Assembly (NCBI GenBank): GCA_016926405.1
Contig: JAFGOQ010000225.1
Location: 1 to 44,550 of the forward strand
Reading direction: 5' to 3'
DNA length: 44,550 nt
Origin: Bacteroidales bacterium
GTDB taxonomy: Bacteria; Bacteroidota; Bacteroidia; Bacteroidales; UBA6680
A program made the translations under genes and the position numbers. Positions 3,257 through 44,550 of this stretch are shown in pieces. Under the pieces are notes generated by a model. The model was not told the origin of the DNA. It saw only the letters and a program-made list of their open reading frames with translations, and did not search any database. The first letter of the stretch is position 1. Every line of letters begins with the position of its first letter.

Positions 3257-3380
3257 ACCTTAAATATTTATGTTGAGTAAAAGTAACAATAAATTATTCG
3301 CAAATAATTTTTACTGATAGCTAAAAAACATATAAATAATTAAAATTATAAAATATTTACACACTACATTGCACACAGTT

Positions 3381-3496
3381 TACTTCGGGGCAGGGTGTAA
3401 TTCCCTACCGGTGGTTATAGTCCACGACTCCCAATTTATTGGGACTGATTTGGTGAAATTCCAAAACCGACGGTCATAGTCCGGATGATAGAAGAG
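3381..3496 (+). promoter_or_regulatory. FMN riboswitch (RFN element) aptamer
   Basis: Conserved RFN blocks are present: cttcggggcagggtgtaattccctaccggtggt, agtccacga, gatttggtgaaattccaaaaccgacggt and agtccggatgatagaag. It sits directly upstream of ribB. Confidence 0.95.
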
Positions 3497-3550
3497 ACTG
3501 ATATTATTTGCATATAAGCATTTTTGCTATATATAATATTTATTATAACT

Positions 3551-3602: not shown

Positions 3603-4235
3603 ATGATAACAAAATTTGGTATCGATTATCGCCAACGTGTTGAAAACGCTCTTAAAGAGTTGCAAGCAGGTAAAGGAATTTTACTAGTTGATGATGAAGA
3701 CAGAGAAAACGAGGGCGATATTATATTCTCGGCCCAGAAAATGACTAATGCCGACATGGCATTAATGATTAGAGAATGCTCTGGAATTGTTTGTCTTTGC
3801 TTAACAAACGAAAAATGCCAAGAGTTGGAATTGCCTCCTATGGTTCAAAATAACAACAGTAAAAATCAGACGGCTTTTACTGTATCTATTGAGGCCAAAG
3901 ATGGTGTTACAACAGGTGTTTCGGCTGCCGATAGAATTACAACAATAAAAACAGCTATTGCTAAAGATGCAAAAGCAAGTCATTTAGCTCATCCAGGACA
4001 TGTATTCCCTCTTAGAGCAAAAGACAACGGTGTTTTCGAACGACGCGGTCACACAGAAGGAACAGTAGATTTAATGAAACTTGCAGGCCTTGCTCCTGCT
4101 GGCGTATTATGCGAACTAACAAATTGCGATGGCACAATGGCTCGTCTGCCACAAATAGTTGAATTTGCAGACAAACACAAAATGGTAGTTATTACTATTG
4201 AAGATATTTACCAGTATCGTAAAGAGATTGAGTAA
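3603..4235 (+). CDS. ribB: 3,4-dihydroxy-2-butanone-4-phosphate synthase (monofunctional)
   Basis: 210 aa with [37 protein letters not shown] and [16 protein letters not shown]. It is collinear with enterobacterial RibB over the full length. Confidence 0.95.
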
Positions 4236-11423: not shown

Positions 11424-14291
11424 ATGGCTACAGATAAGTTTTACAACAGACACATTGGTCCACGTGATCACGAAATTGGACAAATGTTGGAAACTATTGG
11501 AGTAAAATCGATTGATGAATTAATCGATCAAACTATTCCTAAAAACATTCGTTTGCAAGAGCCACTTAATCTTACGCCAGCATTGAGCGAGGCAGAATTT
11601 GCCGCTAAGATTAAAAATATTGCATCGAAAAATAAGATGTATAAGTCGTTTATTGGTATGGGATACTACGGAACAGCTTCTCCTGCAGTTATTATCCGTA
11701 ACATTTTCGAAAACCCATCATGGTATACTTCTTACACTCCGTACCAAGCTGAAATTTCACAAGGTCGTCTTGAGGCTTTGTTGAATTATCAAACGGTAGT
11801 GTCATCGTTAACAGGTATGGAGTTAGCCAACTGTTCGCTTCTTGACGAAGGTACAAGTGCTGCAGAGGCTATGATTATGATGTTTAACACTCGTTCGCGT
11901 AAAGCAGTTAAAGAGGGCAAAAACGTTCTTTTTATCGACGAAAACATCTTTCCTCAAACACTTGACGTAATTATTACTCGTGCAGAGCCTCTTAACATTG
12001 AGGTTATTGTTGCCGACTTTACAAAAGATTACGATAAATCGAAAGCTTTTGGTGCTATTGTTCAATATCCTGCTGCTTCGGGTGAAATTAGAGATTACTC
12101 TGCTTTCACAAAAGAGGCTCACGATAACGAAATGATGGTTACTGCTGTTTGTGATTTATTAAGTCTTGCTGTTCTTACTGCTCCTGCCGAGTGGGGTGCC
12201 GATATTGCTGTTGGTACTACACAACGTTTTGGTATCCCTATGGGATTTGGTGGTCCTCACGCTGGTTATTTTGCTACTCAAGATAAGTTTAAGCGTACTA
12301 TGCCAGGTCGTATTATCGGTATTTCGGTTGACCGTCATGGTAACCAAGCTCTTCGTATGGCTCTTCAAACACGCGAGCAACATATTAAACGCGAAAAAGC
12401 TACTTCAAATATCTGTACTGCTCAGGCATTACTTGCTACTATGGCAGGTATGTACGCTGTTTACCACGGACCTCAAGGTATTAAGCGTATTGCTATGCAC
12501 TCGCACAACGCAGCTATTGAAATTAACAATGCTATTACAAAATTAGGATATACTCAGAACAATAAAGATTTCTTCGATACTCTTGAAGTTTCTATTCCTG
12601 CTGGTGTATCTATCGAAAAAATTAAGGAATTAGCTCTTGAGAGAGAGATAAATTTCTTCTATACAAAAAACAACACTGTTAAAATTAGTACCGACGAAAC
12701 AACTATTGAAGCTGATATTAACAAGGTTATCGAAGTATTTGCTATTGCTGCTGGCAAGCCTGCATTTACAGTTGATGCTATTGGTAACGAAGTTGCTTTC
12801 GACAGCAAGTATGCTCGTAAGTCGGATATCTTAACAGAGAAAATTTTTGGTCTGTACCACTCAGAAACTGAGTTGATGCGTTACATCAAAAAGCTTGAGC
12901 GTAAAGATATTTCTCTTACTCATAGTATGATTCCTCTTGGATCGTGTACTATGAAGCTTAATGCTGCTGCCGAAATGCTTCCTGTTTCGTTTGCCGAATT
13001 TGGTAATATGCACCCATTTGTTCCTTCAAATCAAGCAGAAGGTTACAACGAACTTATTACTGAGTTATGTGCCGACTTAGCTACTATTACTGGCTTTGCT
13101 GGTGTTTCTGTTCAGCCAAACTCTGGTGCTTCGGGCGAATACACTGGTCTTTTAGTTATTCGCGAATATCTTAAGTCTATAGGTCAAGAAAAGCGTAATA
13201 TTTGTTTAATTCCTTCATCGGCTCACGGTACTAACCCTGCTTCGGCTGCTATGGCTGGTATGGATATAGTTATTGTTGGCTGCGACGATAAAGGTAACAT
13301 CGATATGGACGACCTTAAGAAAAAGGCCGAAGAGCATAAAGATGACTTAGCTGCTTATATGGTTACTTACCCATCTACTCACGGTGTATTTGAAGTACAT
13401 ATTAAAGAGATGATGGATATTATCCACAACAACGGTGGTCAGGTTTATATGGATGGTGCTAACATGAATGCTCAGGTTGCTCTTACAAATCCTGGATTTA
13501 TTGGTGCCGACGTTTGTCACCTTAACCTTCACAAATCGTTTGCTATTCCTCACGGTGGCGGTGGTCCTGGTGTTGGTCCTATTGGAGTTGCGGCTCATTT
13601 AGTTCCTTTCTTACCAAACAATCCTATTGTAAATATTAGTAGCGAACAAGCTGTTAAGGCTGTTTCTTCTGCTCCTTTCGGATCGGCAAGTGTTCTTCCT
13701 ATTACTTACGCATATATTAAGATGCTAGGCGAAGAAGGTCTTCGTAAATCAACTCAGATGGCTATTTTAAATGCTAACTATATGGCTAAGCGCATCTCTG
13801 AGCGTTACGAAATTCTTTATACTGGCGCAACTGGTCGTGTTGGTCACGAGATGATTGTTAACTGCCACGGTTTTAAAGCTAAGTATGGTATTGAAGCTGG
13901 CGATATAGCTCGTCGTTTGATGGACTTCGGTTTCCACGCTCCTACTCTTTCGTTCCCTGTTCACGAAACTCTTATGGTAGAACCTACCGAAAGTGAGTCG
14001 TTACAAGAGCTTGACCGTTTTATCGATACTCTATTTATGATTAAAGACGAAATGGAAGAGATTGAAGCAGGTAAATACGACCAAGAAGACAATGTTCTTA
14101 AAATGGCTCCTCACACTGCCGACGAACTTACTGCCGACGAGTGGAACCACCCTTATAGCCGTGCTAAAGCTGCTTACCCATTAGATTGGATTAGAATTAA
14201 TAAATTCTGGCCTGCTGTTGGTAAAATTGATAATGGTTATGGCGACCGTAACCTTGTTTGTACTTGCGCTCCTATTGAAGATTACATGTAA
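11424..14291 (+). CDS. gcvP: Glycine dehydrogenase (aminomethyl-transferring), single-chain P protein
   Basis: 955 aa, collinear with GcvP. Contains YTPYQAEISQGRLEALLNYQT and the PLP-lysine region NLHKSFAIPHGGGGPG. Confidence 0.97.
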   Translation: MATDKFYNRHIGPRDHEIGQMLETIGVKSIDELIDQTIPKNIRLQEPLNLTPALSEAEFAAKIKNIASKNKMYKSFIGMGYYGTASPAVIIRNIFENPSWYTSYTPYQAEISQGRLEALLNYQTVVSSLTGMELANCSLLDEGTSAAEAMIMMFNTRSRKAVKEGKNVLFIDENIFPQTLDVIITRAEPLNIEVIVADFTKDYDKSKAFGAIVQYPAASGEIRDYSAFTKEAHDNEMMVTAVCDLLSLAVLTAPAEWGADIAVGTTQRFGIPMGFGGPHAGYFATQDKFKRTMPGRIIGISVDRHGNQALRMALQTREQHIKREKATSNICTAQALLATMAGMYAVYHGPQGIKRIAMHSHNAAIEINNAITKLGYTQNNKDFFDTLEVSIPAGVSIEKIKELALEREINFFYTKNNTVKISTDETTIEADINKVIEVFAIAAGKPAFTVDAIGNEVAFDSKYARKSDILTEKIFGLYHSETELMRYIKKLERKDISLTHSMIPLGSCTMKLNAAAEMLPVSFAEFGNMHPFVPSNQAEGYNELITELCADLATITGFAGVSVQPNSGASGEYTGLLVIREYLKSIGQEKRNICLIPSSAHGTNPASAAMAGMDIVIVGCDDKGNIDMDDLKKKAEEHKDDLAAYMVTYPSTHGVFEVHIKEMMDIIHNNGGQVYMDGANMNAQVALTNPGFIGADVCHLNLHKSFAIPHGGGGPGVGPIGVAAHLVPFLPNNPIVNISSEQAVKAVSSAPFGSASVLPITYAYIKMLGEEGLRKSTQMAILNANYMAKRISERYEILYTGATGRVGHEMIVNCHGFKAKYGIEAGDIARRLMDFGFHAPTLSFPVHETLMVEPTESESLQELDRFIDTLFMIKDEMEEIEAGKYDQEDNVLKMAPHTADELTADEWNHPYSRAKAAYPLDWIRINKFWPAVGKIDNGYGDRNLVCTCAPIEDYM

Positions 14292-14353: not shown

Positions 14354-14445
14354 TGTAAAGACGTTGCATAATCCTGTACAGACGTTGCATGATCCTGTAC
14401 AGATGTTGCATGATCCTGTACAGACGTTGCATGCAACGTCTCTAC
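14354..14445 (+). repeat. REP ladder 1: three 21-nt half-REP units plus a full 28-nt hairpin
   Basis: The units are tgtaaagacgttgcataatcc, tgtacagacgttgcatgatcc and tgtacagatgttgcatgatcc. They are followed by gtacagacgttgcatgcaacgtctctac (14418-14445), a 14-bp stem with one C-C mismatch. Confidence 0.9.
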
Positions 14446-14502
14446 GGAATACTTGAAATGAATAACAGAATTTCTTATTTTTTTCCTCTAAAACAGCAAA
14501 AT

Positions 14503-15105
14503 ATGTCTGAAGAGAGATACAAAGATTTATATAGAGTTAAATCGGCAAGGTTACCAGGCTGGGATTATAGAAATGAGGGTGGATATTTTGTTACTATTTG
14601 CACAAAGAATATGGAATGCTTTTTTGGCGATGTTGTTAATGGTAAAGTAATATTATCTGAAATTGGATTATTGGCACATAAATTCTGGAACAATATACCT
14701 GTACATTTTCCATTTGTTATATTAGATGCATTTATAATTATGCCTAATCATATTCATGGGATTTTAATATTAGATTCTACAGTAGAGACGTTTCATGAAC
14801 CTGCAGAGACGTTGCATAATCCTGTACAGACGTTGCATGCAACGTCTCTACCAGAAGACAATTCAAAACAAATCAACAAAAAAATGTCCCAAATATCTCC
14901 TGTTTATGGTTCGTTGTCAACAATTATAAGATCTTATAAATCGGCCGTTTCAAAAGAATCAAGACTTATTAATTCAGATTTTAACTGGCTGCCACGTTTC
15001 TATGATCGCATTATTCGTAATACTAAAGAATACAATAATATAAAAAATTATATTTTCGAAAACCCTGATAGATGGATGTTGAAGAAACATTGCATTGCAC
15101 AGTAG
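14503..15105 (+). CDS. REP-associated tyrosine transposase (RayT / IS200-like Y1 HUH enzyme)
   Basis: HUH motif MPNHIHGIL (His codons 14749-14757) and the catalytic-Tyr region LPRFYDRIIRN (Tyr codon 15001-15003). Start moved to MSEERYKDLY, because the track start 14389 lies inside REP ladder 1. Confidence 0.8.
   Translation: MSEERYKDLYRVKSARLPGWDYRNEGGYFVTICTKNMECFFGDVVNGKVILSEIGLLAHKFWNNIPVHFPFVILDAFIIMPNHIHGILILDSTVETFHEPAETLHNPVQTLHATSLPEDNSKQINKKMSQISPVYGSLSTIIRSYKSAVSKESRLINSDFNWLPRFYDRIIRNTKEYNNIKNYIFENPDRWMLKKHCIAQ
14781..14851 (+). repeat. REP ladder 2, located in frame inside the RayT coding sequence
   Basis: agtagagacgtttcatgaacc, then tgcagagacgttgcataatcc, then tgtacagacgttgcatgcaacgtctctac. 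It is translated as TVETFHEP-AETLHNP-VQTLHATSLP. Confidence 0.9.
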
Positions 15106-15980: not shown

Positions 15981-16004
15981 CGCATTTAAATATTAAAATA
16001 ATTG

Positions 16005-16135
16005 TGTTCAGACAAAGCGGAGTATTATCAATACATATCAAATAATACTGTACAGACAAGGCAGTACACTATCAATACATATCAAATTATGCTGTAGAGA
16101 CAAGGCAGTGCCTTGTCTCTACGACAACTAGGGTT
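16005..16135 (+). repeat. REP variant-2 ladder: two 44-46-nt half units plus a full hairpin
   Basis: gtgttcagacaaagcgg...ataatact (46 nt), then gtacagacaaggcagtacact...attatgct (44 nt), then gtagagacaaggcagtgccttgtctctac-gacaactagggtt. The last 40 nt (16096-16135) repeat 15941-15980 with one mismatch (c15942 vs g16097). Confidence 0.85.
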
Positions 16136-16269
16136 GTTGAAATAATAGCGGGTAATAATGAGAAGCATAGCCGCACTTTTATAGGGCTAGCACACATACA
16201 AACAAGCTGATACAGTAATAATTACATACTATAACAGCCTTTTATAATAGTAATATATCCGACAATATC

Positions 16270-16395
16270 AACCAAACGCCAAGCAACTTCAACCGAGCGC
16301 CAGACAACCTTAACCGAGCGTCCGGCAACTTCAACCGAGCGCCAAGTAACCTTAACCGAGTGGCAAGCAATTGCAACCGAATGGCAGGCAATATA
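16270..16395. repeat. GC-rich tandem array, 6 x 21 nt
   Basis: The units are aaccaaacgccaagcaacttc, aaccgagcgccagacaacctt, aaccgagcgtccggcaacttc, aaccgagcgccaagtaacctt, aaccgagtggcaagcaattgc and aaccgaatggcaggcaatata. The first four unit ends alternate cttc / cctt, giving a 42-nt super-period. Confidence 0.9.
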
Positions 16396-16406
16396 AAATA
16401 ATGGGC

Positions 16407-16451
16407 AAAAAAAAGCAGACTCACACTCTTTTAAAAGAAGTGCAAGTCTGC
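16407..16451 (-). terminator. Intrinsic terminator of the hydrogenase-like operon
   Basis: On the minus strand: gcagacttgcacttctt-ttaa-aagagtgtgagtctgc followed by T8. Confidence 0.85.
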
Positions 16452-16476
16452 GTGTCAAAAAAAAAACTATAATATT

Positions 16477-17901
16477 TTAATTCCTATTCAGGTATTTTGC
16501 TAATTGACGCTTTGCTACTCTTATATCGGCAATACACGAAGGACCAGCTACGCAGCCATCGGTACAAACCATAACCTCAACAAAATTACCATCGCATTTT
16601 CCTTTACCCATCGATTTAAGGGCGCGCATATTTGGCTTGTCAAGTCCGTTAATAATAATTTCGTTAACACCTTCTGGAATAGCTGTTTTAATAGCAGCGG
16701 CAACACCTCCACTTTGTGCAAAACCACGTCCAACGGGTCCAGCTCCTGCAATATCAACCTCGGTTGATTGTTCAGATAGCTCTATACCTTTCGAAATAAG
16801 CATAGCACCAAGTTCTTCGAAGTTAAGAACATACTTAACATCCGACTTGTTAATTGCTTCGCTACGTTTAGCAACACAAGGACCAACAAAAACGGTAATA
16901 GCATCGGGATGTGTTGTTTTAACCCAACGATCGGTTAAAACCATTGGACTAGGTGTTGTAGAAACAAAAGGCTTAAGATCGGTAATATGCTTTTCGGCAA
17001 GCTCAACATAAGCCGGGCAGCACGATGTTGTCATAAACTTAGCTCCTTCTTCCATTCGCTCTTTCCACTCGTGAGCCTCTTCGGCAGCAGTCATCTCGGC
17101 ACCTACAGCAACCTCAACAACATCAAAAAAGCCAAGCTCTTTTACTCCCGAAATTATTTTTTCTAAATCAACATTATACTGACCAATAACAGCAGGGGCA
17201 AGCATTGCAATAACCTTTTTGCCATTGTCTATTGATTTCATTACATCGTACAAATGCGATTTTTGTGTAACAGCACCATAAGGACAAGCAGTAATACATT
17301 TTCCGCAATGAATACACTTATCTTCGTCTAGGCGGGCAATACCATATTTATCTTTAGAGATAGCATCAACAGGGCAAGCTTGCTCGCAAGGAACAGGCGT
17401 GTTAATAATTGCATGAAAAGGGCAAACATTACGGCAAATACCACAGTTTACGCATGTATCGGCATTAATTTCGGCTTTACCGTCGATAAATGAGATTGCA
17501 TTTTTTGGACAGTTAAGCATACAAGGTTGTGCCACACAACCACGACAGTGATTGGTAACCACATGCTGCTCTTTTGAGCACGAACTACAAGCAGCATCAA
17601 TAATATTTAGTCGACAAGTTGGGGTCTCCTCGCGCTGTTTTGCTATTTCAATGTAATCGCTAGGACGCATAAGCTCGTCCATGGTAGGAGTAATAGGAAT
17701 TCCCAACAAACTAATTAGTCTGTTATTAACAACTTCGCGTTCTTTGTAAATACAACAACGAACAGGCTTCTTTGCCATCTTAGGCGAAATTATTAGAGGA
17801 ATTTTATCAATCTCTGTTTCAAGCTTTCCTTCGTAATATAATTTTGTAAAGCGGTTGGTTATTTCACGCTTAATAAGCATTGCACCATTAGTGTAACCCA
17901 T
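16477..17901 (-). CDS. [FeFe]-hydrogenase-family H-domain protein with non-canonical active-site motifs and three 4Fe-4S motifs
   Basis: 474 aa with CRGCVAQPCMLNCP, CVNCGICRNVCP and CIHCGKCITACP. H-cluster motifs read TTSCCPAYV, VGPCVAKRSE and VMVCTDGCVAGP (canonical forms are TSCCP, MPCxxK and CxxGCxxGGGQP). Confidence 0.8.
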   Translation of the reverse strand: MGYTNGAMLIKREITNRFTKLYYEGKLETEIDKIPLIISPKMAKKPVRCCIYKEREVVNNRLISLLGIPITPTMDELMRPSDYIEIAKQREETPTCRLNIIDAACSSCSKEQHVVTNHCRGCVAQPCMLNCPKNAISFIDGKAEINADTCVNCGICRNVCPFHAIINTPVPCEQACPVDAISKDKYGIARLDEDKCIHCGKCITACPYGAVTQKSHLYDVMKSIDNGKKVIAMLAPAVIGQYNVDLEKIISGVKELGFFDVVEVAVGAEMTAAEEAHEWKERMEEGAKFMTTSCCPAYVELAEKHITDLKPFVSTTPSPMVLTDRWVKTTHPDAITVFVGPCVAKRSEAINKSDVKYVLNFEELGAMLISKGIELSEQSTEVDIAGAGPVGRGFAQSGGVAAAIKTAIPEGVNEIIINGLDKPNMRALKSMGKGKCDGNFVEVMVCTDGCVAGPSCIADIRVAKRQLAKYLNRN

Positions 17902-18154
17902 CTTCTAATTCCTTTTTAATCTGATTTATTAATTTTGTTATGCTCGCTCGTGATACACATTTGCCATTAACCGAGGCAAACGGTGGCTTTTCGTCTTCAT
18001 TACTATTACAAAAACCTAAACATATGGAACCTTCAATATCCACACGCTTTTTTAACTCTTCTGGAAGATGCTCTTCTAGAAGTTGAAGTTCAGAACCGCC
18101 CATAACGTAGCAGAGAGTCCCGATGCAGATTTTAACTTTTATTTTCTTTTCCAT
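17888..18154 (-). CDS. Thioredoxin-like [2Fe-2S] ferredoxin (NuoE/HydC-like small protein)
   Basis: 88 aa with ICIGTLCYVMG ... CLGFCNS. It overlaps the downstream hydrogenase-like gene by 14 nt. Confidence 0.7.
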   Translation of the reverse strand: MEKKIKVKICIGTLCYVMGGSELQLLEEHLPEELKKRVDIEGSICLGFCNSNEDEKPPFASVNGKCVSRASITKLINQIKKELEDGLH

Positions 18155-18189
18155 ATGTTTGATTTTAACAATGACATTGTCATTGAGAG

Positions 18190-19374
18190 TTAAATAAATT
18201 CAAGATTTATTTTTTTTAAAAATTTATCTTCAAGCAGCTTTATTATCTTTTTTACAACACTACGTCTAATCTCTAATTCAACAGGTAAACTAGGATCTTG
18301 GTGAGCATTATTTATTCTTGTTCCTATTAAAAAATCAATCTCGTCGCTCTCAAAAAACATTTTAACAATTTTATGAGCAGGACTATCCTGATTAATATCT
18401 TCGCCATTGTAATTTTCTAGTATTTCGCTCACTTTTCCAATGGTTAAAATACCTTCTGTTAACAAATCAACACCTTCCATTTTCGATTCTGGCGGTAGTC
18501 CCAAAATGTTTGGCGACAACCCCACCTGAATATCTTTATTTAGCTCGCGCGAAATAATTTGCGATGTTGTACCACCACAAACAACCTTATAGCCTGGAAA
18601 AGATTCAATTATACTTGCCAGCTTTTTGTCGTTTTCGCTATTATATGGCGGACCCGAAAGTAGTAACATTCTTCGAGGATTCCGAAAATAAATCACTCCA
18701 CATGAGGTGTCATCTTTAGGTTTCATCAAATCGTTCTTCCAAGCCTGCATAACCATATTCTTAGCTAAGGCACTAGCCGAAATATTCTCGTTACGTTGAA
18801 TCTGATTTTTGGCAAATTTGTTTATATCGTTAATACCCCATCCAAAGGGCATATTTTTGGTTCCCATTCCCGATTGGCTTATACCATCGGAAAAAGTAAT
18901 TATTCTATCTTCCTTTTCGCTAATAAACGAAGTTATAAACATCGATTTATCGCGAGTATCTTTTCGGTTTATAGCAATCTGTTTCCATTCGGGATGAAAA
19001 AGCTCGCCCCGTCTGAAAATCATACACGATGGATTTCCGTACTCAACAATACGAGTTTCGCCATCGCAGTCTATATCTATAATTGTGAATGTAGCGTATG
19101 CAATTTTTCGGGTTCCACAAACAGGAAGAGTATTAAAAATTGTTTCGGCAGTTCGTTGTATTGGTTGATTTTCGATGGTGAAGTTAAGAGCCATGCTGGC
19201 GGTCATTGTAGCAAGCACATTTGCCTTAATACCGCTTCCTAAGCCATCGGAAAGAATAGCAATAACCCTATTTTCGTCCTTAACTTTTCGAGAAAGGAAC
19301 ACGTCGCCACAAACGTGCGTACCGTTTTTGGAAAACTGGTAACTGTCAACCTCTATAAATGTGTTAGACCCCAT
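18190..19374 (-). CDS. SpoIIE/PP2C-family serine phosphatase with an uncharacterised C-terminal domain
   Basis: 394 aa with VCGDVFLS...VIAILSDGLGSGIKANVLATMTASMAL and FSDGISQSG, which are PP2C metal-binding blocks. The C-terminal ~165 aa (VVCGGTTSQI...VDLLTEGILTIGKV) are unassigned. Confidence 0.8.
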   Translation of the reverse strand: MGSNTFIEVDSYQFSKNGTHVCGDVFLSRKVKDENRVIAILSDGLGSGIKANVLATMTASMALNFTIENQPIQRTAETIFNTLPVCGTRKIAYATFTIIDIDCDGETRIVEYGNPSCMIFRRGELFHPEWKQIAINRKDTRDKSMFITSFISEKEDRIITFSDGISQSGMGTKNMPFGWGINDINKFAKNQIQRNENISASALAKNMVMQAWKNDLMKPKDDTSCGVIYFRNPRRMLLLSGPPYNSENDKKLASIIESFPGYKVVCGGTTSQIISRELNKDIQVGLSPNILGLPPESKMEGVDLLTEGILTIGKVSEILENYNGEDINQDSPAHKIVKMFFESDEIDFLIGTRINNAHQDPSLPVELEIRRSVVKKIIKLLEDKFLKKINLEFI

Positions 19375-19410
19375 GTTCTTCTCTATATTAATTAATTACA
19401 ATAAAGTTTT

Positions 19411-21141
19411 TTAATTACTATTATGTTCGTCGATACTGTGCGACTCAACAATAGAGTTAAGAATAGCCTCCGTACGCGAAGCATTCTCGCCAAGTAAATA
19501 AGCAATTCGTTGAACAGTGTTTAAGTTTTCGGTAATAACCTTCTTCGATCGTTTAATAACCTCTTCGCGTCGCATTTCGGGCATAGTAAGGTCGCGAATA
19601 ATTCCACCAACAATTTTGTGTGGTTGAATTGAGAAAAGAGACATGTGCAGAAGCTTTCCGTTGTGCTTAACGTCGCACTCAATATTCTCCGATCCCGACG
19701 AAAGTAACGAAGCAAAGAATTTATGAAAAGAGACAAGCTTAGTTAAATTAGCCCCTCCAAGACCTGGGTTAACATCCCAAATCATAAGAGTCTCTTCGCC
19801 TAAAATTTTAGCAAAACTTTTATTCGACTCAATAATTTTTAAGTTATCGTCGATAATAACAACCCCAGAAGGAATTTTCTGAAGCAAAACAGTTGCTTTA
19901 TCGTGGGCTACTTTTCGCATATACGAGGCGCACATACTACGTTCGGCACGATCTTCGAGAATTGCATGAGCAAACTCACGGCACGAGTCGTAGCCACAAC
20001 CACCACAGTTTAGCTCGTCTTTTTCCGACAGTTTACCAACTATCTGAAGAGCCTCTTTATACTGCTTTTCGGTATACTTTTGCTCATTAACATCTTGTGG
20101 TAAGTACTGACATTTAATTGCGCTATACTCTATATGTAATTTTTTATCGTTCTGTTTTTGGCGACCGCGAGTTTCGTCAATTATTTTAAGATTCTTAACC
20201 GCCGACGAATATTTACTGTCGCTTCCAGGACCATTTATACAGCCCCCAGGACAAGCTAACAACTCAAGAAAAAGCTTGTTAGTAATATTTTGTTTGTTAA
20301 TATCTTTTAAAACTTCCTTCACATTCTGCATCCCCGAGAAGTTCATAAGAGTAGTATCGTCAATACTACCACATTTCTTTATTCCCTTGGCCATTCCACC
20401 ATCAAGAGGGTAAAGAGCAGCAATACCTGCTTCGTGAGGAAACAACGATATGTTTTGCTCTGCATCAACTTCATCTAAAATAATTTGCTCTTGTTCGAAC
20501 CAATTATTCAGATCGGAAAATGTAATAGCAACATCAACATCGTGAGGATATTTGTCCGACTCGCGCTTTTTAGCAATGCAAGGACCAATAAAAACAACAG
20601 GAGTCTCTTTGCCAAGCTCTGCTTTTAACATCTTAGCATGAGCCATTAATGGCGAAAAAATGGGAATTATATTTTCTATTAACTCGGGGTGGAATTTCTC
20701 AACAAACTCAACAACGGCAGGGCATGCCGACGATAAAAAAAGATGTTTGTTAGATTCCTGAATATATTTAGCCGAGAACTCAGATACTTTTTCGGCACCA
20801 ATAGCAGTTTCGGAAATGTGAGTAAAACCTAACATTTTAATTGCTGTAAACAATTTCTCTTTCGAAATATTACTCCACTCCGAGATATACGACGGAGCAA
20901 TAGATACAGCCACTTGACTATTTACAGCAACAAGTTTTTGTGCTTTCCATAAATCGTTACGCACTTTTTTAGCTCCCGCTGGACAAACTTCGGTGCAGCG
21001 ACCACAAAAAATACATAACTCGGAAATCACCGAAGCTCTTCCTTTTTCAACTTTAATTGCCTTTACAGAACATTCTCTAATGCACTTATAGCAATCCTGA
21101 CAGTTGTTTTTTTCTGTAAAAACAGGCAAAAATGGTGTCAT
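19411..21141 (-). CDS. hydS: Putative sensory [FeFe]-hydrogenase (HydS / group C type) with a C-terminal PAS domain
   Basis: 576 aa with two CxxCxxCxxxC motifs and an H-domain reading LSSACPAVV, IGPCIAKKRE and LLACPGGCINGPG. It also has an extra CGGCGYDSC...C motif, followed by a PAS-like region (LLQKIPSGVVIIDDNLKIIESNKSFAKILG). Confidence 0.8.
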   Translation of the reverse strand: MTPFLPVFTEKNNCQDCYKCIRECSVKAIKVEKGRASVISELCIFCGRCTEVCPAGAKKVRNDLWKAQKLVAVNSQVAVSIAPSYISEWSNISKEKLFTAIKMLGFTHISETAIGAEKVSEFSAKYIQESNKHLFLSSACPAVVEFVEKFHPELIENIIPIFSPLMAHAKMLKAELGKETPVVFIGPCIAKKRESDKYPHDVDVAITFSDLNNWFEQEQIILDEVDAEQNISLFPHEAGIAALYPLDGGMAKGIKKCGSIDDTTLMNFSGMQNVKEVLKDINKQNITNKLFLELLACPGGCINGPGSDSKYSSAVKNLKIIDETRGRQKQNDKKLHIEYSAIKCQYLPQDVNEQKYTEKQYKEALQIVGKLSEKDELNCGGCGYDSCREFAHAILEDRAERSMCASYMRKVAHDKATVLLQKIPSGVVIIDDNLKIIESNKSFAKILGEETLMIWDVNPGLGGANLTKLVSFHKFFASLLSSGSENIECDVKHNGKLLHMSLFSIQPHKIVGGIIRDLTMPEMRREEVIKRSKKVITENLNTVQRIAYLLGENASRTEAILNSIVESHSIDEHNSN

Positions 21142-21166
21142 GGATGTAATTTTTTAGTGTTAATAA

Positions 21167-21418
21167 TTACCCTTTAACAAACACCGAGTCGAGTATATCG
21201 GTAACCGAATCGGGATCAACACTCTCGAAACAAGTGTCGTTAATATATATTACAGGCCCCTTATTACACATATTAGAACAAAGCTTACCCCTAAAATCGA
21301 TCTGGGCATTAAGACCATTCCTTTGTATATAGGTTTTAATAATACCCAACGTTTTTTCGTTTCCTCGTGCAAAACAAGAAGATCCCATACAAATAGTAAT
21401 TTTGTGTTGAGTGTCCAT
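21167..21418 (-). CDS. Thioredoxin-like [2Fe-2S] ferredoxin
   Basis: 83 aa with ICMGSSCFARG ... CSNMCNKGP. Confidence 0.7.
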   Translation of the reverse strand: MDTQHKITICMGSSCFARGNEKTLGIIKTYIQRNGLNAQIDFRGKLCSNMCNKGPVIYINDTCFESVDPDSVTDILDSVFVKG

Positions 21419-21463: not shown

Positions 21464-21582
21464 AAGGAGTCCAAAAACAGATTATTTAAAAGTCATGTTA
21501 ACCCTAGTTAAAGGTTATTATTCTAATTATAATCCTTTGTCTTTACTCAGAATGACTTTAATTAATAGTTTTTGGACTCCTT
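21464..21582 (-). other. 119-nt extended hairpin with perfect 15-bp terminal arms (terminator, 5'-UTR structure or MITE-like element)
   Basis: aaggagtccaaaaac (21464-21478) pairs with gtttttggactcctt (21568-21582). An inner imperfect pairing aaagtcat / atgacttt extends it, and tttatt follows on the minus strand. Confidence 0.6.
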
Positions 21583-21590
21583 GAAATATA

Positions 21591-22991
21591 CTAGTTATAC
21601 TTTTCTGAAATATATTTGTCAATAGCTACAGCCGATTTTTTACCAGCACCCATAGCTAAAATAACAGTAGCAGCACCAGTTACAGCATCGCCACCAGCAA
21701 AAACACCATCAAGCGATGTTTTTCCAGTCTCTTCGCAAGCATCAATACATTCCCACTTATTAAGCTTCAAACCTTCGGTAGATTTGTTAATAATAGGGTT
21801 TGGATTTGTACCCAACGACATAATAACAGAATCGGCCTCAATAATAAATTCCGATCCAGGAACAGGAATTGGACTTCTACGACCCGAAGCATCAGGCTCG
21901 CCAAGTTCCATTCTTAAACATTTAACTCCTTTAACCCATCCGCTAACTGTACCAACAATTTCGGTTGGATTACAAAGAACGTCGAAAATAATTCCCTCTT
22001 CTTGTGCGTGATGAACCTCTTCAACACGAGCAGGTAACTCTTCAATTGAACGACGATAAACGATATGTACCTCGGCACCAAAACGAAGAGCAGTACGAGC
22101 TGCATCCATAGCAACGTTACCGCCACCAACAACAACAACTTTTTTACCAACAAAAACAGGAGTATCGTACTCGTCGCGGAAAGCTTTCATAAGGTTACTA
22201 CGAGTAAGAACCTCGTTAGCACTGAAAACACCGTTATAGTTCTCGCCAGGAATACCCATAAACTTAGGCAAACCAGCACCAGAAGCAAGATAAACAGCTT
22301 TGAAACCTTCTTCGGTAAGAAGTTTTGCAACAGTTACCGTACGACCAATAATAACGTCAGTCTCAATCTTAACACCTAAATTGCGAATGTTATCAATCTC
22401 TTTTTTAACAACTCTCTCTTTAGGAAGACGGAATTCTGGAATACCATATTCAAGAACACCACCAGCTTTATGTAAAGCCTCGAAAATAGTAACATCGTAA
22501 CCAGCTTTAGCAAGCTCGCCAGCACACGAAAGACCAGCAGGACCACTACCAACAATAGCTACTTTGTGACCATTAGCAGGTTTCTTAACAACTTTTAATG
22601 TTTTGTTTTCGTTAACATAGTCGGCCACAAAACGCTCTAATTTACCAATGCTAACCGAGTCGCCTTTTTTATTAAGCACACAAACACCTTCGCACTGACT
22701 CTCTTGAGGACAAACACGTCCGCAAATTGCAGGAAGAGTAGAACCGTCGAAAAGAATCTCGCCAGCTTTCTCTAAATTACCTTGCTTTATCTGACCGATA
22801 AAACCAGGAATGTTAATAGAAACAGGACATCCAGCAACACACGATGGTTTTTTACATTCCAAACATCTGCTAGCTTCAGCCGTTGCTTCTTCAATATTAT
22901 ATCCTAAACAAACCTCTTCGAAATTTTTGTTACGCACATCGGCATCTTGGTTTCTTACAGGTATTGCAGTGAATCTATCTATCTTACTCAT
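21591..22991 (-). CDS. nfnB: NfnB / GltD-family NADPH-dependent oxidoreductase (large subunit of NADH-dependent ferredoxin:NADP+ oxidoreductase; SudA-like)
   Basis: 466 aa with RCLECKKPSCVAGCPVSINIP, CGRVCPQESQCEGVC, VAIVGSGPAGLSCA and VFAGGDAVTGAATVILAMGAGK. Confidence 0.8.
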   Translation of the reverse strand: MSKIDRFTAIPVRNQDADVRNKNFEEVCLGYNIEEATAEASRCLECKKPSCVAGCPVSINIPGFIGQIKQGNLEKAGEILFDGSTLPAICGRVCPQESQCEGVCVLNKKGDSVSIGKLERFVADYVNENKTLKVVKKPANGHKVAIVGSGPAGLSCAGELAKAGYDVTIFEALHKAGGVLEYGIPEFRLPKERVVKKEIDNIRNLGVKIETDVIIGRTVTVAKLLTEEGFKAVYLASGAGLPKFMGIPGENYNGVFSANEVLTRSNLMKAFRDEYDTPVFVGKKVVVVGGGNVAMDAARTALRFGAEVHIVYRRSIEELPARVEEVHHAQEEGIIFDVLCNPTEIVGTVSGWVKGVKCLRMELGEPDASGRRSPIPVPGSEFIIEADSVIMSLGTNPNPIINKSTEGLKLNKWECIDACEETGKTSLDGVFAGGDAVTGAATVILAMGAGKKSAVAIDKYISEKYN

Positions 22992-22997
22992 CTTTGC

Positions 22998-23876
22998 TTA
23001 TCCTTTACAAGAACATTTATGTCCTTCTTTCTCTTTTTGTAACTTAATTAACGCCTGTCCCTCTTCCGATTTAAACATTAATTGGCGACGCATAGCCTCG
23101 TCGAAATTAACCTCGTGAGCGTTAAACTCAGGGCCATCAACACAAGCAAATTTAGTTTTACCACCAATACTTACTCTACAAGCACCACACATTCCTGTTC
23201 CGTCAACCATTAAGGTATTTAACGAAGCAATAGTTTTAATGCCATATTCTGCAGTAAGTTCAGAAACAGATTTCATCATTATCATTGGTCCAATAACAAT
23301 AATTAGATCGTAATTAAACTCGTTCTTCTCGCGAAGATCTTTCATCACGTCTGTAACAAATCCCTGACGACCAACCGATCCGTCGTTTGTACATAAGTGA
23401 AGATTGTTTGTTACCTCTTTAAGTTCGTCAACAATAATAAGTTGCTCTTCAGAACGTGCTCCAAGAATCATGTCCGCTTTAATGCCTTTATCGGCTAACC
23501 ATTTTACCTGAGGGTAAATAGGCGCAGCACCAACACCACCACCAACAAAAAGAATTTTCAGATCTTTAAGATCCTCAATTTTCTCGTCAATAAGTTCTGT
23601 TGGATGCCCTAAAGGACCAGCAAAATCAAGGAAACTATCACCTTCTTTTAAATCAACAATACGGTGTGTAGCTTTACCTACTGCCTGAATTACAATTGTT
23701 ACCGTACCTTTTTCGGCATTGTAATCGGCTACAGTTAAAGGAATTCTCTCTCCCTCTTCGTGTGTTCTAACAATAACAAATTGCCCTGGCAAAGCCGACT
23801 TAGCAACTCTAGGAGCGTAAACCTGATATAATGAAATACCAGATGCAAGAACTCTGTGTTTTTTAATTTCGAACAT
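22998..23876 (-). CDS. nfnA: NfnA / sulfide-dihydroorotate dehydrogenase-like FAD/NAD-binding subunit (SudB-like)
   Basis: 292 aa with PGQFVIVRTHEEGERIPLTVADY, FVGGGVGAAPIYP and the 2Fe-2S motif GTGMCGACRV...FACVDGPEF. Its stop lies 6 nt upstream of nfnB. Confidence 0.8.
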   Translation of the reverse strand: MFEIKKHRVLASGISLYQVYAPRVAKSALPGQFVIVRTHEEGERIPLTVADYNAEKGTVTIVIQAVGKATHRIVDLKEGDSFLDFAGPLGHPTELIDEKIEDLKDLKILFVGGGVGAAPIYPQVKWLADKGIKADMILGARSEEQLIIVDELKEVTNNLHLCTNDGSVGRQGFVTDVMKDLREKNEFNYDLIIVIGPMIMMKSVSELTAEYGIKTIASLNTLMVDGTGMCGACRVSIGGKTKFACVDGPEFNAHEVNFDEAMRRQLMFKSEEGQALIKLQKEKEGHKCSCKG

Positions 23877-23944: not shown

Positions 23945-23997
23945 AAGAAGGGAAGCGTAACTAGTTTGCAATAAGAGATAGCTTCCCTTCTTTTTTT
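23945..23997 (+). terminator. Plus-strand-oriented terminator-like hairpin inside a minus-strand gene block
   Basis: 12-bp stem aagaagggaagc / gcttcccttctt followed by a T-run on the plus strand only. Confidence 0.4.
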
Positions 23998-24026: not shown

Positions 24027-25193
24027 TTAATAGTCCACTTCGTTACCATAATATATTGAGGTAAACAGTTTTTTAAATTCATTATTAGTTGTTCTTCTTG
24101 GATTTGCACCTGTACATGCATCCGACTCAGCATTTTCAGCAATCTTGTCTAGATTATCAAAGAAAAACTTCTCGTCAACTCCTAAATCTTTAAGATTTAA
24201 AGGAATATTCAAACTTTTATTTATTTCATTCAATCTTCGCTTTAACGAAGAAATAAGTTGATCTTCAGTTTTCCCTTCAAGACCAAGTTGATTTGCCACC
24301 TCGGCATATTTACTACCACAAACAGATTTGTTATAATCAATCACATAAGGCAAATAAATAGCATTAGCAAAACCATGATGAACATTCAACACACCACTTG
24401 TTTTGTGCGACATACTATGAACAATTCCCAAAAGAGCATTTGAGAAAGCCATTCCTGCCATACATTGAGCAATATGCATGTCTTCTCTTGCTTTTTTATC
24501 TTTTTTATATGAGTTAACAAGATTATCGTTAATCATTTGCATAGCTTTTAGCGCCAAAGTATCAGTAATTGGCGTTGAAAGAGCTGCCACATAAGCTTCA
24601 AGAGCGTGAGTAAAAGCATCCATTCCTGTGTATGCTGCAGTTTCGGGTGTCATTAACTGAGCTAATGCAGGATCTAAAATTGCAATATCTGGAGTTATTT
24701 CATAATCAGTAAGAGGATACCTTATTTTAGTATCGTAATCTGTAATGATTGAAAAAGCAGAAACCTCCGATGCTGTTCCACTAGTAGTAGGAATAGCAAT
24801 AAATTTTGCTTTTGTTCGTAATTCAGGAATTGCAAAAGGGTCTTTAATATCTGTTATCGAAATATTTGGATACTCATAAAATATCCACATTGCTTTTGCA
24901 GCATCCATAGTAGCACCACCACCAATAGCTATTATCCAATCGGGCTCAAAACTAAGCATAGCAGCAGCACCCTTATTAACTGTATCAACAGAAGGGTCTG
25001 GTTCTATTCCTTCGAACAGACTAGTCTCTATTCCCGCCTCTTCTAAATAGTCAATACAGTTTTTAATAAAACCTTTTTGCTTTAAAGAGTCGTCTCGAGT
25101 AATAATAATAGCCTTTTTACCTTTAATGGTCTTAAGAGTCTGTAAACTATTGACTCCATAATATATGTCCCTAGGTAGTGTAAAGCGTGCCAT
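24027..25193 (-). CDS. Iron-containing (group III) alcohol dehydrogenase
   Basis: 388 aa with IAIGGGATMDAAKAM, PTTSGTASE, and the metal-binding His blocks FTHALEAY and HSMSHKTSGVLNVHHG. Confidence 0.85.
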   Translation of the reverse strand: MARFTLPRDIYYGVNSLQTLKTIKGKKAIIITRDDSLKQKGFIKNCIDYLEEAGIETSLFEGIEPDPSVDTVNKGAAAMLSFEPDWIIAIGGGATMDAAKAMWIFYEYPNISITDIKDPFAIPELRTKAKFIAIPTTSGTASEVSAFSIITDYDTKIRYPLTDYEITPDIAILDPALAQLMTPETAAYTGMDAFTHALEAYVAALSTPITDTLALKAMQMINDNLVNSYKKDKKAREDMHIAQCMAGMAFSNALLGIVHSMSHKTSGVLNVHHGFANAIYLPYVIDYNKSVCGSKYAEVANQLGLEGKTEDQLISSLKRRLNEINKSLNIPLNLKDLGVDEKFFFDNLDKIAENAESDACTGANPRRTTNNEFKKLFTSIYYGNEVDY

Positions 25194-25795
25194 TTTAATT
25201 ATTAGTTTTATGCTGTTATTCTGTTAACAATTTAGATGCCATTAGACTCAAACCATTAATAATTACAAACTTAAATGCTTCATATTAAAATAAGGGGGAT
25301 ACATTGATTGTTTATGCTTGATTTTAGTACACAATAAAACATGGCAGTGTACTAAATAAAGACAGTGTCATTTAAACGAACAAACTCAAACCTTAAACAT
25401 TGAATTTTAAAAGATATATTAGTCTATAAAACAAGTTATAATATCAGGTAAAACATTTATTTACTAACTAAAATTATTAGTTAGGTGTAATAGGGTATTG
25501 TAGAGATCTATTAAATTTTAAAAATCAAGGTGTTCAGTCTATACTAATTAGATAGCACAAACTGAAGAGCTGCAAAAATAGCTTTTAAGAATTAATTTTC
25601 AACAAAATATTATTTTATAAAACCTATCGTTTTTAATCCAAATCGTTTGATTTAAACATTTTATTAAGCAAACTATTTCAAGAAGTAACAACTTTCAAGA
25701 AATAGACAAAAAACAATTTCAGTTTGTTAATTATTAAGGCTATTATTCAACATAATATTATTTAAAAACATGTTTCTTTCTTAATCAATTAACAT

Positions 25796-42950: not shown

Positions 42951-44550
42951 CTACTTATAACTAATATCGTAGCGTTTCATCTTTTCGTACAAAGTATTAC
43001 GACTAATACCAAGAGTCTTTGCCACCTTCGACATATTTCTATTATTAATTCTTATAGAGTCAATAATAGCGCGTTTCTCCATCTCCTTAAGAGTTAAAGG
43101 AATTAATTTATCGTCAGATATTTTTAATCCATCGTCGACAGTAGCAGTTGATGTTGAGAAATTAGAAAATGCCGAAAGATCTAGCTGCACATCACCATTA
43201 AAGTTCACAATCTTCTCAACAAAGTTTTCAAGCTCACGGATATTTCCTGGCCAATCGTGCGCCATTATATCATCGTACAACGACTGACGAATAACAGGAA
43301 TATCTTTATTTAACTTAAGAGCTTTGCGATTAAGGAAAAATTTCAACAACGAAGGAATATCGCTTCGTCTGTCTCTAAGTGGTGGAATCTCTATTGGAAT
43401 TACACTCAAACGATAGTAAAGGTCGAGACGGAATTTACCTTCGTCAACAAGTTTTCGCAGATTGCGATTTGTTGCTGCAATAATTCTAACATCAACAGGA
43501 ATAGTTTTTGTCCCACCAACACGAGTAACTTCGGCCTCTTGCAGTGCTCTAAGAAGCTTAACCTGCATGTCCATAGGCATTTCACCAACCTCATCAAGAA
43601 ACAAAGTTCCTGCATTTGCTACCTCAAACTTACCTGGATGACCGCCTTTTTTTGCCCCTGTAAAAGCACCATCGTCGTAACCAAAAAGTTCGCTTTCAAT
43701 AAGATTTTCGGGAATAGCACCACAGTTAATTGGCACAAAAGCATGAGAGGCTCTATCGCTGGCATTATGAATACTTTGCGCAATAACCTCTTTACCTGTT
43801 CCACTCTCGCCCTGAATTAATATTGTTGAAGGACTAGAAGCTACTGTTTGTGCATATTGCACAATACGCTTCATCTGCGGACTTTTATTAATAATGTCTT
43901 TAAAATGATAGCGAGCACGCATACCCGAATACTTATGAACAAGATTCATAATACGCTTAAACTCTCGAAACGAAAGAAGAATACCTGTAAGCTTGTCTTG
44001 AGCATTATATAAAGGATGCGAATTTATAATAAAGCGTTCTTTTCCTGCACCTACCTTAAACTCAACCTCTTCGTCGTGAATAAAAGTATAGGCTCTAACA
44101 ACTTTAAGAATAGTTTTATAATCGGGAATAAAATCACCAATAGACTTTCCAACAAGCTCTTCGTAAGGTTGTTTAAGAAACTTACCAGCAGTTGTGTTGG
44201 CACGTAAAATCTTACCATCTAAATCGAGAGCAAAAACACCAAATGAAAAGGTATTTATTATAGTATTAACATACTGATAAGCTTCGTCTAACTCTGTATG
44301 AATTTTTCTAGATTCAAACCTATCTTCTAAATATTTAGCACCTGCAATTGCTATACCTAAAGTATGCGAGTGAATAGAGTCGCAATGGCCAGCAAGGGTA
44401 AATGTACCTATAATATTTTTTAGCGAATCATGAATTGGGGCAGTAGAACAGGTCCACTTCTTATATGATTTTAAATAATGATCGTCACCAGAAAATTGTA
44501 AAGGTGTATCGGTAACTATAGAAGTGCCAATAGAATTGGCTCCTACTCTA
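42951..44550 (-). CDS. Sigma-54-dependent transcriptional activator, GAF-PAS-AAA+-HTH (AcoR-like), N-terminus beyond the window
   Basis: AAA+ blocks GESGTGKE, GAFTGA, ESELFGY and a C-terminal Fis-type HTH (MSKVAKTLGISRNTLYEKMKRY). My own translation upstream of the track start stays open to 44549 and reads as PAS (VFALDLDGKILRANTTAGKFL) and GAF-like sequence. Confidence 0.85.
   Translation of the reverse strand, partial: RVGANSIGTSIVTDTPLQFSGDDHYLKSYKKWTCSTAPIHDSLKNIIGTFTLAGHCDSIHSHTLGIAIAGAKYLEDRFESRKIHTELDEAYQYVNTIINTFSFGVFALDLDGKILRANTTAGKFLKQPYEELVGKSIGDFIPDYKTILKVVRAYTFIHDEEVEFKVGAGKERFIINSHPLYNAQDKLTGILLSFREFKRIMNLVHKYSGMRARYHFKDIINKSPQMKRIVQYAQTVASSPSTILIQGESGTGKEVIAQSIHNASDRASHAFVPINCGAIPENLIESELFGYDDGAFTGAKKGGHPGKFEVANAGTLFLDEVGEMPMDMQVKLLRALQEAEVTRVGGTKTIPVDVRIIAATNRNLRKLVDEGKFRLDLYYRLSVIPIEIPPLRDRRSDIPSLLKFFLNRKALKLNKDIPVIRQSLYDDIMAHDWPGNIRELENFVEKIVNFNGDVQLDLSAFSNFSTSTATVDDGLKISDDKLIPLTLKEMEKRAIIDSIRINNRNMSKVAKTLGISRNTLYEKMKRYDISYK

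Follow-up and report, generated by a model that had tools for sequence, protein, structure and literature searches.

A putative sensory [FeFe]-hydrogenase, a PP2C phosphatase and a group B hydrogenase in one Bacteroidales gene cluster of the Ruminococcus albus hydS-hydA2 type

A 44.5-kb stretch of DNA from a Bacteroidales bacterium (here called the window, by which we mean the whole stretch that was analysed) carries five tightly packed minus-strand genes, which encode a small [2Fe-2S] ferredoxin (fdxA), a HydS-like putative sensory [FeFe]-hydrogenase of 576 residues (HydS576), a PP2C phosphatase, a second ferredoxin (fdxB) and a further [FeFe]-hydrogenase of 474 residues (HydB474). We found that this cluster is a further member of a known, mechanistically unresolved class, and not a new kind of system. 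Judged by sequence, it has the pattern of the Ruminococcus albus hydS-hydA2 and hfs-type clusters, with one-to-one homologs and a module order in which only the second ferredoxin gene is placed differently. We consider it rather probable that these Bacteroidales genes are orthologous to the hydS-phosphatase-hydA2 unit of R. albus and form an operon in which a ferredoxin-dependent, H2-evolving group B hydrogenase would have its own H2 sensor, whose signal would be relayed through the PP2C phosphatase to a regulator encoded elsewhere. All five open reading frames (ORFs) were confirmed (Table 1); from fdxA to the hydrogenase gene they are separated by gaps of 25, 36 and 35 nt, followed by a 14-nt overlap between the end of fdxB and the hydrogenase gene. 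The terminator that closes the operon was overlooked by a simple terminator scan, and its hairpin was confirmed by folding. An initial annotation of the window, made from the letters alone, had described the tight packing, these gaps and overlap, the sequence motifs and the strong terminator, and all of them were found again from the ORF coordinates and by folding.

A tblastn search of plasmids matched pRUMAL01 of R. albus 7, on which the annotated gene order is Rex, AdhE, phosphotransferase, fdx, fdx, HydS, PP2C, HydA2 (the cluster of Zheng et al. 2014, as cited in PMC5707799; also PMC6776011). The R. albus HydS is 30% identical to HydS576 (98% coverage), its PP2C protein 32% identical to that of the window (96% coverage, C-terminal domain included) and its HydA2 34% identical to HydB474 (95% coverage), and fdxA is 29-31% identical to both of the small [2Fe-2S] ferredoxins encoded upstream of R. 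albus hydS. Both clusters adjoin an alcohol dehydrogenase gene. They differ as follows: both ferredoxin genes lie upstream of hydS in R. albus, whereas in the window one precedes hydS and the other precedes the hydrogenase gene; the R. albus cluster has Rex, AdhE and a 250-aa phosphotransferase, whereas the window has an iron-containing alcohol dehydrogenase (Fe-ADH), NfnAB and a sigma-54-type promoter instead; and R. albus HydS has Cys at the position of CpI residue 299, where HydS576 has Ala. The R. albus phosphotransferase was considered as a candidate kinase and rejected, no homolog being found in the window or in 83 loci. The eight-gene R. albus cluster, comprising the ferredoxin-only hydrogenase, AdhE and the sensory hydrogenase, is 111-fold lower when a co-culture partner consumes H2 (PMC6776011). 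The initial annotation held that what is regulated could not be read from the locus; this was overstated, as the operon together with NfnAB and Fe-ADH matches this H2-responsive gene set.

In the literature the R. albus hydS-phosphatase-hydA2 unit has been equated with hfsABCD of Thermoanaerobacterium, which is described as encoding a PAS-containing [FeFe]-hydrogenase (HfsB), a Ser phosphatase (HfsC) and a HydA2-similar, ferredoxin-linked hydrogenase (HfsD) in T. saccharolyticum (PMC5707799, PMC11837493, PMC12288451). The resemblance to hfs noted in the initial annotation thus holds, through one-to-one homologs in the case of R. albus and through published descriptions, not sequences, in the case of hfs, which has four genes to the window module's five. 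HfsA is described as aligning poorly with known proteins, and is at most a candidate equivalent of fdxA. In T. saccharolyticum, deletion of hfsA or hfsB gives a higher ethanol yield with adhE expression up, and a high ethanol yield was not seen on deletion of hfsC/hfsD (PMC5707799); hfsD, hydA and nfnAB are all needed for high ethanol yield (PMC12288451). By these papers, hfsABCD is functionally tied to adhE and nfnAB, the types of enzyme that flank the window module.

HydS576 has two N-terminal [4Fe-4S] motifs (a Fer4 dicluster at residues 10-57), an H-domain (PF02906, 172.8 bits), a PF04060 match (37.3 bits) which here reads exactly Cx2Cx4Cx16C, a putative PAS region and a conserved helical tail of ~55 aa. 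Its H-domain motifs are LSSACPAVV, FIGPCIAKK and ELLACPGGCINGPG, so that SSACP, GPCxxK and CPGGCINGPG, the forms given in the initial annotation, are all present. The residues C140, C188, C297 and C301 together with K191 correspond to the H-cluster ligands C300, C355, C499 and C503 and the CN-binding K358 of CpI, and all five are invariant among 31 orthologs in one alignment and among 76 in a second; no H-cluster ligand is missing. The four cysteines of the C-terminal cluster motif (C379, C382, C387 and C404) are likewise invariant in the 31-ortholog alignment. The proton relay was compared over CpI residues 185-453 in an alignment of both window H-domain proteins, their R. albus counterparts, 76 HydS-like and 39 HydB-like orthologs. 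At CpI positions 279/282/286/299/319, HydS576 has S/Y/S/A/I versus E279/E282/R286/C299/S319 in CpI, and the relay is lost; position 299 is Ala in 58 of the 76 HydS-like orthologs and Cys in 17. In CpI numbering, HydS576 further shows M353 replaced by Gly and M497 by Leu.

These features agree with published accounts of sensory [FeFe]-hydrogenases. HydS of Thermotoga maritima (TmHydS; group C, M2f) has the same M2f architecture of two N-terminal [4Fe-4S] motifs, H-domain and Cx2Cx4Cx16C, followed by PAS, which is putative in HydS576 (PMC8163306, PMC10055695, PMC13104023), and HydS of Thermoanaerobacter mathranii (TamHydS) belongs to group D, M2e (same sources). By published description, both have lost C299 and the proton relay, as has HydS576; M353 is Gly in HydS576 and TmHydS, and M497 is Leu in HydS576 and TamHydS and Ser in TmHydS. 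The scores of HydS576 against NCBIfam group models fall below the cut-offs for group A (TIGR02512, 105.5 versus 406), group B1 (TIGR04105, 194.3 versus 450) and group A6 (NF040763), and R. albus HydS gives the same pattern. Among 31 HydS orthologs, PAS_8 is matched in 24, PAS in 16 and PAS_9 in 10, so a PAS domain in HydS is supported at the level of the family. The assignment to group C in the initial annotation therefore stands, since the ligands are kept, the relay is lost and the group A, A6 and B1 cut-offs are not reached; the extra four-Cys motif it pointed to is also present. We classify HydS576 as a putative sensory [FeFe]-hydrogenase of group C / M2f, which fits the published M2f description (PMC8163306). 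By linkage it also fits the putative HydDB subgroup C3, 'phosphatase-linked (putative)' (PMC5037454): the PP2C gene begins 36 nt downstream, and this adjacency is kept in 76 loci.

The same protein could be read as a sensor not of H2 but of redox state, responding to the ferredoxin or NAD(P)H pool through fdxA, the FeS clusters and PAS, with the H-cluster vestigial or a mere redox cofactor. The module does lie among the redox enzymes NfnAB and Fe-ADH, Rex adjoins it in relatives, and a dedicated 2Fe-2S partner always accompanies HydS. Nevertheless, we regard this as quite unlikely: the invariance of the four H-cluster cysteines and of the residue equivalent to K358 in 76 orthologs favours an H-cluster that is functional, the level of H2 affects the R. 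albus gene cluster (PMC6776011), and H2 is bound by TmHydS and TamHydS, which also react with it (PMC8163306).

The phosphatase encoded next to HydS576 comprises a PP2C domain and a C-terminal domain. Its AlphaFold model (pLDDT 84.8) has SpoIIE (5mqh, E 4e-14) and then RsbX as best fold matches by Foldseek. The metal-binding residues D24, D43, D163, D221 and D222 are invariant in 33 orthologs and, with all of these aspartates retained, the enzyme looks catalytically competent. The C-terminal domain is a conserved alpha/beta domain of 163 aa (AlphaFold pLDDT 88.8) with no Pfam match and no PDB fold match below E 0.05. A methylglyoxal-synthase-like alpha/beta fold, the best PDB match, was rejected at only E 0.05 and TM ~0.4, and a STAS domain was rejected after the fold search. 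Among 1.84 billion representative proteins the domain occurs in 861 clusters; because nearly all of these are proteins of ~390 aa with the same architecture, it is private to this phosphatase family.

The resemblance to SpoIIE bears on what the phosphatase might act on. It could be a partner-switching phosphatase of the RsbU/SpoIIE type whose substrate is an unlinked STAS anti-anti-sigma protein; what it controls would then be an alternative sigma factor and not a sigma-54 activator. The closest solved structures are indeed SpoIIE, RsbX and RsbU-type phosphatases, a family known to act on STAS proteins (PMC11418112). We found no gene for a STAS protein, an anti-sigma kinase or a sigma factor in the 44.5-kb window by Pfam scans, nor a recurrent one in the 80 loci described below, although this is an absence of linkage only; we take such partner switching to be unlikely here.

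The fifth gene of the cluster had been taken in the initial annotation for a mere second H-domain paralog, in a cluster with no kinase, STAS protein, hydEFG or catalytic hydrogenase. The first part of that list agrees with a Pfam scan of 40 window ORFs of at least 100 aa (a 955-aa ORF at 11424-14291 was left out), in which no kinase, STAS protein, hydE/F/G or further hydrogenase was found; these negatives hold for the window only. The last part does not stand. HydB474 scores 522.9 bits on TIGR04105 (NCBIfam 'monomeric [FeFe] hydrogenase', group B1; cut-off 450) over residues 7-458 of 474, compared with 577.4 for the R. albus protein at the HydA2 position and 525.4 for the stand-alone group B enzyme of Parabacteroides distasonis. 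It retains TSCCP, GPCxxK and, in CpI numbering, C300, C355, K358, C499 and C503 as well as the relay residues E279, E282, R286, C299 and S319. Among module-linked HydB orthologs, E279, E282, C299 and S319 are kept in 39 of 39; M353 is Gly in HydB474 and in 34 of the 39. Because HydB474 passes TIGR04105 and keeps the whole proton relay, a predicted catalytic-type hydrogenase is present in the operon, and we identify it as the counterpart of R. albus HydA2 (which also passes this model) and of HfsD. The fdxB protein has the cysteines C10, C15, C45 and C49 and is 24% identical to fdxA (C10, C15, C47 and C51) with all four Cys aligned, both proteins showing a Cx4C...Cx3C pattern; fdxB and HydB474, whose genes are translationally coupled, are predicted to form a complete catalytic-type enzyme. 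The group B hydrogenase of gut Bacteroides/Parabacteroides (PMC12578642), of which the P. distasonis 'monomeric [FeFe] hydrogenase' passes TIGR04105 as HydB474 does, is encoded alone in Parabacteroides, without sensor, phosphatase or ferredoxin partner, whereas HydB474 is encoded at the end of a sensor operon, its gene being translationally coupled to that of a 2Fe-2S ferredoxin.

We scanned GTDB species representatives and obtained at least 588 confirmed relatives, of which the neighbourhoods in the best 80 loci were compared (individual loci carry L numbers). The best relative among the matches listed is only 68% identical, and the window organism is for this reason assigned to an undescribed Bacteroidales lineage. 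Homologs of HydS576 and of the phosphatase are abundant in Bacteroidota, for example in Marinifilaceae, Labilibaculum, Tenuifilum and Williamwhitmania. The initial annotation was aware of no work on this class in Bacteroidota; we likewise found no experimental work in the phylum, but the module itself is common in its genomes. The fdxA-HydS-PP2C trio is nearly invariant in the 80 loci, with fdxA directly before the sensor gene in relatives and upstream of HydS in most loci. The full order fdxA-HydS-PP2C-fdxB-HydB occurs in 33 of the 80, across several phyla, fdxB being kept between the phosphatase and hydrogenase genes in each of these; its carriers include Bacteroidales (the gut species Odoribacter laneus and Butyricimonas virosa), Treponemataceae, Planctomycetota and others. 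In four further loci (L054, L064, L071 and L074, from Lentimicrobiaceae-type Bacteroidales) a gene for a bifunctional AdhE of ~880 aa stands between fdxB and the group B hydrogenase gene. In Cloacimonadota and Ignavibacteria the trio is placed after genes for Rex and a HydCBA-type bifurcating hydrogenase. A tandem arrangement HydS-PP2C-fdx-HydS' (~616 aa)-PP2C, followed by a receiver-domain gene on the opposite strand, is found in L003, L006, L007, L009, L010, L012, L013 and L048; these tandem-duplication loci, from Marinifilaceae (Marinifilum, Labilibaculum and Ancylomarina), have no catalytic hydrogenase in the locus. Fe-ADH and/or NfnA(B) precede the module in 12 loci, with Fe-ADH upstream in 10, and Rex genes stand between nfn and fdxA in relatives; L068 has the full eight-gene order of the window plus Rex. 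Thus the sensor-phosphatase-ferredoxin trio behaves as a portable module, and many Bacteroidales, among them Odoribacter and Butyricimonas from the human gut, have it coupled to a group B hydrogenase; the lack of an output partner is common to the whole class.

Apart from these loci, L087 (P. distasonis, NZ_OY725779.1) has a HydS-like gene that is shorter and PAS-less, with two 'ATP-binding protein' genes, a DRTGG-domain gene and a PHP-domain gene on its flanks, which we regard as a different, group D-like putative sensor context in gut Bacteroidales.

The distribution of the trio also bears on whether the five proteins might form one multi-subunit hydrogenase, as hfsABCD was first annotated, in which HydS would be a slow catalytic or electron-entry subunit and the phosphatase would dephosphorylate HydB, HydS or ferredoxin with no external output partner. 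The tight packing with its 14-nt overlap is compatible with such a complex, as is the want of a conserved kinase, regulator or STAS neighbour in any phylum among the 80 loci; the private C-terminal domain of the phosphatase could dock onto the complex, and deletion of hfsB raised hydrogenase activity in T. saccharolyticum (PMC5707799). However, HydS is without its proton relay and characterised relatives show low turnover (PMC8163306), a phosphatase would still require a kinase, of which none is linked, and the trio also travels with bifurcating HydABC or with no hydrogenase at all, which fits a portable regulator better than a fixed subunit. We therefore think a single complex improbable, and give it little weight beside an operon in which the hydrogenase has its own sensor.

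A possible route to transcription is suggested by a sigma-54-type promoter element before Fe-ADH and by an activator gene near the window end. The pattern TGGCA[CT]N5TTG occurs only once in the window on both strands (as TGGCATN5TTG), where by our estimate ~0.5 occurrences would be expected from base composition. The activator gene, 21 kb from the module, is truncated by the window end and encodes an AdhR-like enhancer-binding protein. AdhR of Clostridium beijerinckii is a GAF-PAS-AAA+-HTH sigma-54 activator of Fe-ADH genes (PMC7017808); it comes from a different phylum, and the likeness is one of architecture (GAF-PAS-AAA+-HTH in the module-adjacent activators of relatives, PAS-AAA+-HTH in the window copy) and of the -24/-12 promoter before Fe-ADH, not of compared sequences. 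In 13 Bacteroidales loci a GAF-PAS-AAA+-HTH_8 activator gene lies immediately upstream of the module on the same strand and is followed by a TGGCAC-N5-TTG-like element in front of Fe-ADH or fdxA; in at least eight Bacteroidales, activator and promoter directly precede the hydS module and not the ADH gene. In L001 and L004, the closest relatives, this promoter element stands ~160 nt upstream of nfnA. The window activator is 45-49% identical to the module-adjacent activators over ~530 aa, their own mutual median being 49.7%, and other NtrC-type proteins align with it over ~315 aa only (the AAA+ core); we thus assign it as a predicted ortholog of those activators. Upstream of the promoter, GACACTGTC is a weak to moderate candidate for an activator site: ACACTGT/ACAGTGT is present in 10 of 17 orthologous promoter-upstream regions, versus 0.13 per kb in the window, and ACAGTGT and GGACAC motifs recur ~100-140 nt upstream of the sigma-54-like promoters of relatives. 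The promoter and the activator ortholog are a second reason why the regulated target is more legible from this locus than the initial annotation allowed.

Taken together, the favoured reading of a hydrogenase operon with its own H2 sensor would work as follows. The fdxA and HydS576 proteins are predicted to bind an H-cluster, with the proton relay lost; HydS would bind H2 and turn it over slowly, and fdxA would serve as its redox partner. What happens at the H-cluster would be passed on by way of the C-terminal [4Fe-4S] cluster, PAS region and helical tail to the phosphatase, which is probably a subunit attached by the C-terminal domain specific to its family, and which would in turn change the phosphorylation of a regulator whose gene lies elsewhere in the genome. 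If the R. albus data and the genetics of T. saccharolyticum are taken as analogies, a build-up of H2 would shift electron disposal between H2 evolution and alcohol/NADPH formation. The controlled targets would be the co-directional Fe-ADH, nfnAB and hyd string itself, and the most likely DNA-binding endpoint in this lineage would be the AdhR-like sigma-54 activator at the promoter before Fe-ADH.

This scheme needs to be interpreted cautiously, as several observations weigh against it. No gene for a phospho-substrate, kinase, STAS protein or sigma factor was found in the window or is recurrent in the 80 loci. With hydEFG absent from the window, maturation of the H-cluster is presumptive. HydS576 itself scores 19.4 bits on PAS_8, below the cut-off of 21.8, so that the C-terminal PAS-like domain proposed in the initial annotation is supported for the family and putative in this protein. 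The C-terminal cluster of TamHydS, a group D protein, is not reduced by H2 (PMC13104023), which undermines a redox relay through that cluster, and H2 sensing by any group C enzyme is still termed 'putative' in the literature. The sigma-54-type promoter lies before Fe-ADH and not before fdxA, with two hairpins between it and the module; for this reason sigma-54 control of the five genes is tentative here, and no such promoter was found in the window directly before fdxA or nfnA. Many relatives, finally, carry Rex in place of, or beside, the sigma-54 activator. The signalling route of this hydrogenase class, called unresolved in the initial annotation, was still so described up to April 2026 (PMC13104023, PMC12578642).

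A more specific proposal, which we regard as a long shot, is that the AdhR-like GAF-PAS sigma-54 activator is the target of the HydS-PP2C pair in Bacteroidales, for instance through dephosphorylation of the activator itself or of a protein bound to it, with the C-terminal domain of the phosphatase as docking module. If this were true, H2 partial pressure would directly set transcription of an ADH/Nfn/group-B-hydrogenase operon, and for the first time the path from an [FeFe] H2 sensor to a promoter would be complete. H2 sensing and the switch between H2 and alcohol in fermenters bear on gas production in gut and rumen and on biofuel strains; the locus does not answer how they work, but the comparison offers experimental handles in the near-invariant core, the family-specific phosphatase domain and the recurrent sigma-54 activator with its promoter.

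Table 1. Features of the five-gene module and of its surroundings in the window.
Feature	Position	Strand	Evidence and remarks
fdxA, thioredoxin-like [2Fe-2S] ferredoxin, 83 aa, first gene of module	21167..21418	-	PF01257 (2Fe-2S_thioredx), 38.7 bits
HydS-like putative sensory [FeFe]-hydrogenase, 576 aa	19411..21141	-	Fer4 + Fe_hyd_lg_C + PF04060 + weak PAS_8 (Pfam)
PP2C (SpoIIE/RsbU-type) Ser/Thr phosphatase, 394 aa	18190..19374	-	PF07228 (SpoIIE); PP2C = residues 1-230
fdxB, second thioredoxin-like [2Fe-2S] ferredoxin, 88 aa	17888..18154	-	weak PF01257 match
Group B ('monomeric') [FeFe]-hydrogenase, predicted catalytic type, 474 aa (HydB)	16477..17901	-	Fer4 + Fe_hyd_lg_C; TIGR04105
Intrinsic terminator closing five-gene operon	~16407-16452	-	hairpin dG -21.8 kcal/mol, z -5.6 versus shuffles, then U8
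Long structured element in 172-nt nfnB-fdxA spacer	21466..21580	-	15-bp closing stem, U-run, dG -37 kcal/mol, z -5.2
NfnB-like subunit (GltD-type NADPH oxidoreductase)	21591..22991	-	TIGR01316 572.5 bits; PF14691 + PF07992
NfnA-like subunit (sulfide/dihydroorotate dehydrogenase-like FAD/NAD-binding protein)	22998..23876	-	NF004862 391.6 bits; syntenic in relatives
Hairpin in nfnA leader, GAAGGGAAGC...GCTTCCCTTC	23947..23990	-	folding; kept in closest relatives
Iron-containing alcohol dehydrogenase (Fe-ADH), first gene of co-directional string	24027..25193	-	PF00465 + PF25137
Sigma-54-type -24/-12 promoter element TGGCATctaaaTTGtt	25226..25241	-	32 nt before Fe-ADH start codon
Candidate upstream activator site GACACTGTC	25361..25369	-	~127 nt before -24 element
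AdhR-like sigma-54 enhancer-binding protein, PAS-AAA+-HTH_8	42951..44546	-	N-terminus (probably GAF) and upstream neighbours beyond window end

The Fe-ADH and nfnAB genes stand directly upstream of the module and are co-directional with it, and the NfnB-like gene is syntenic in L001, L004, L033 and L068. The structured element in the nfnB-fdxA spacer, of ~115 nt, has one copy in the window and is absent from the closest relatives, whose corresponding gap is 44-77 nt; it could be a terminator or attenuator between nfnAB and the module, or an inserted element. The GAAGGGA(A/G)GC...hairpin of the nfnA leader is common to the window and L001/L004, though the proteins are only ~70% identical; in L001/L004 it lies downstream of the sigma-54-like promoter, and in the window the Fe-ADH gene intervenes. 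There is no Rex gene in the window, and a search for the Rex operator (TTGTTAAN6TTAACAA, with up to three mismatches) gave no site in the relevant intergenic regions. An Rfam search gave no match in or near the five-gene cluster.

Just 3' of the operon terminator lie two sets of tandem repeats, with a 21-nt unit repeated 5.4 times at 16268-16380 and a 44-nt unit repeated 2.6 times at 15996-16109. More 21-nt units are found at 14354-14433 and 14784-14839, in and around a 238-aa ORF (14389-15105) with no Pfam match. Farther away, an FMN riboswitch (RF00050, 108 bits) is located at 3377-3500 on the plus strand, before a DHBP synthase (ribB-like) gene at 3603-4235.

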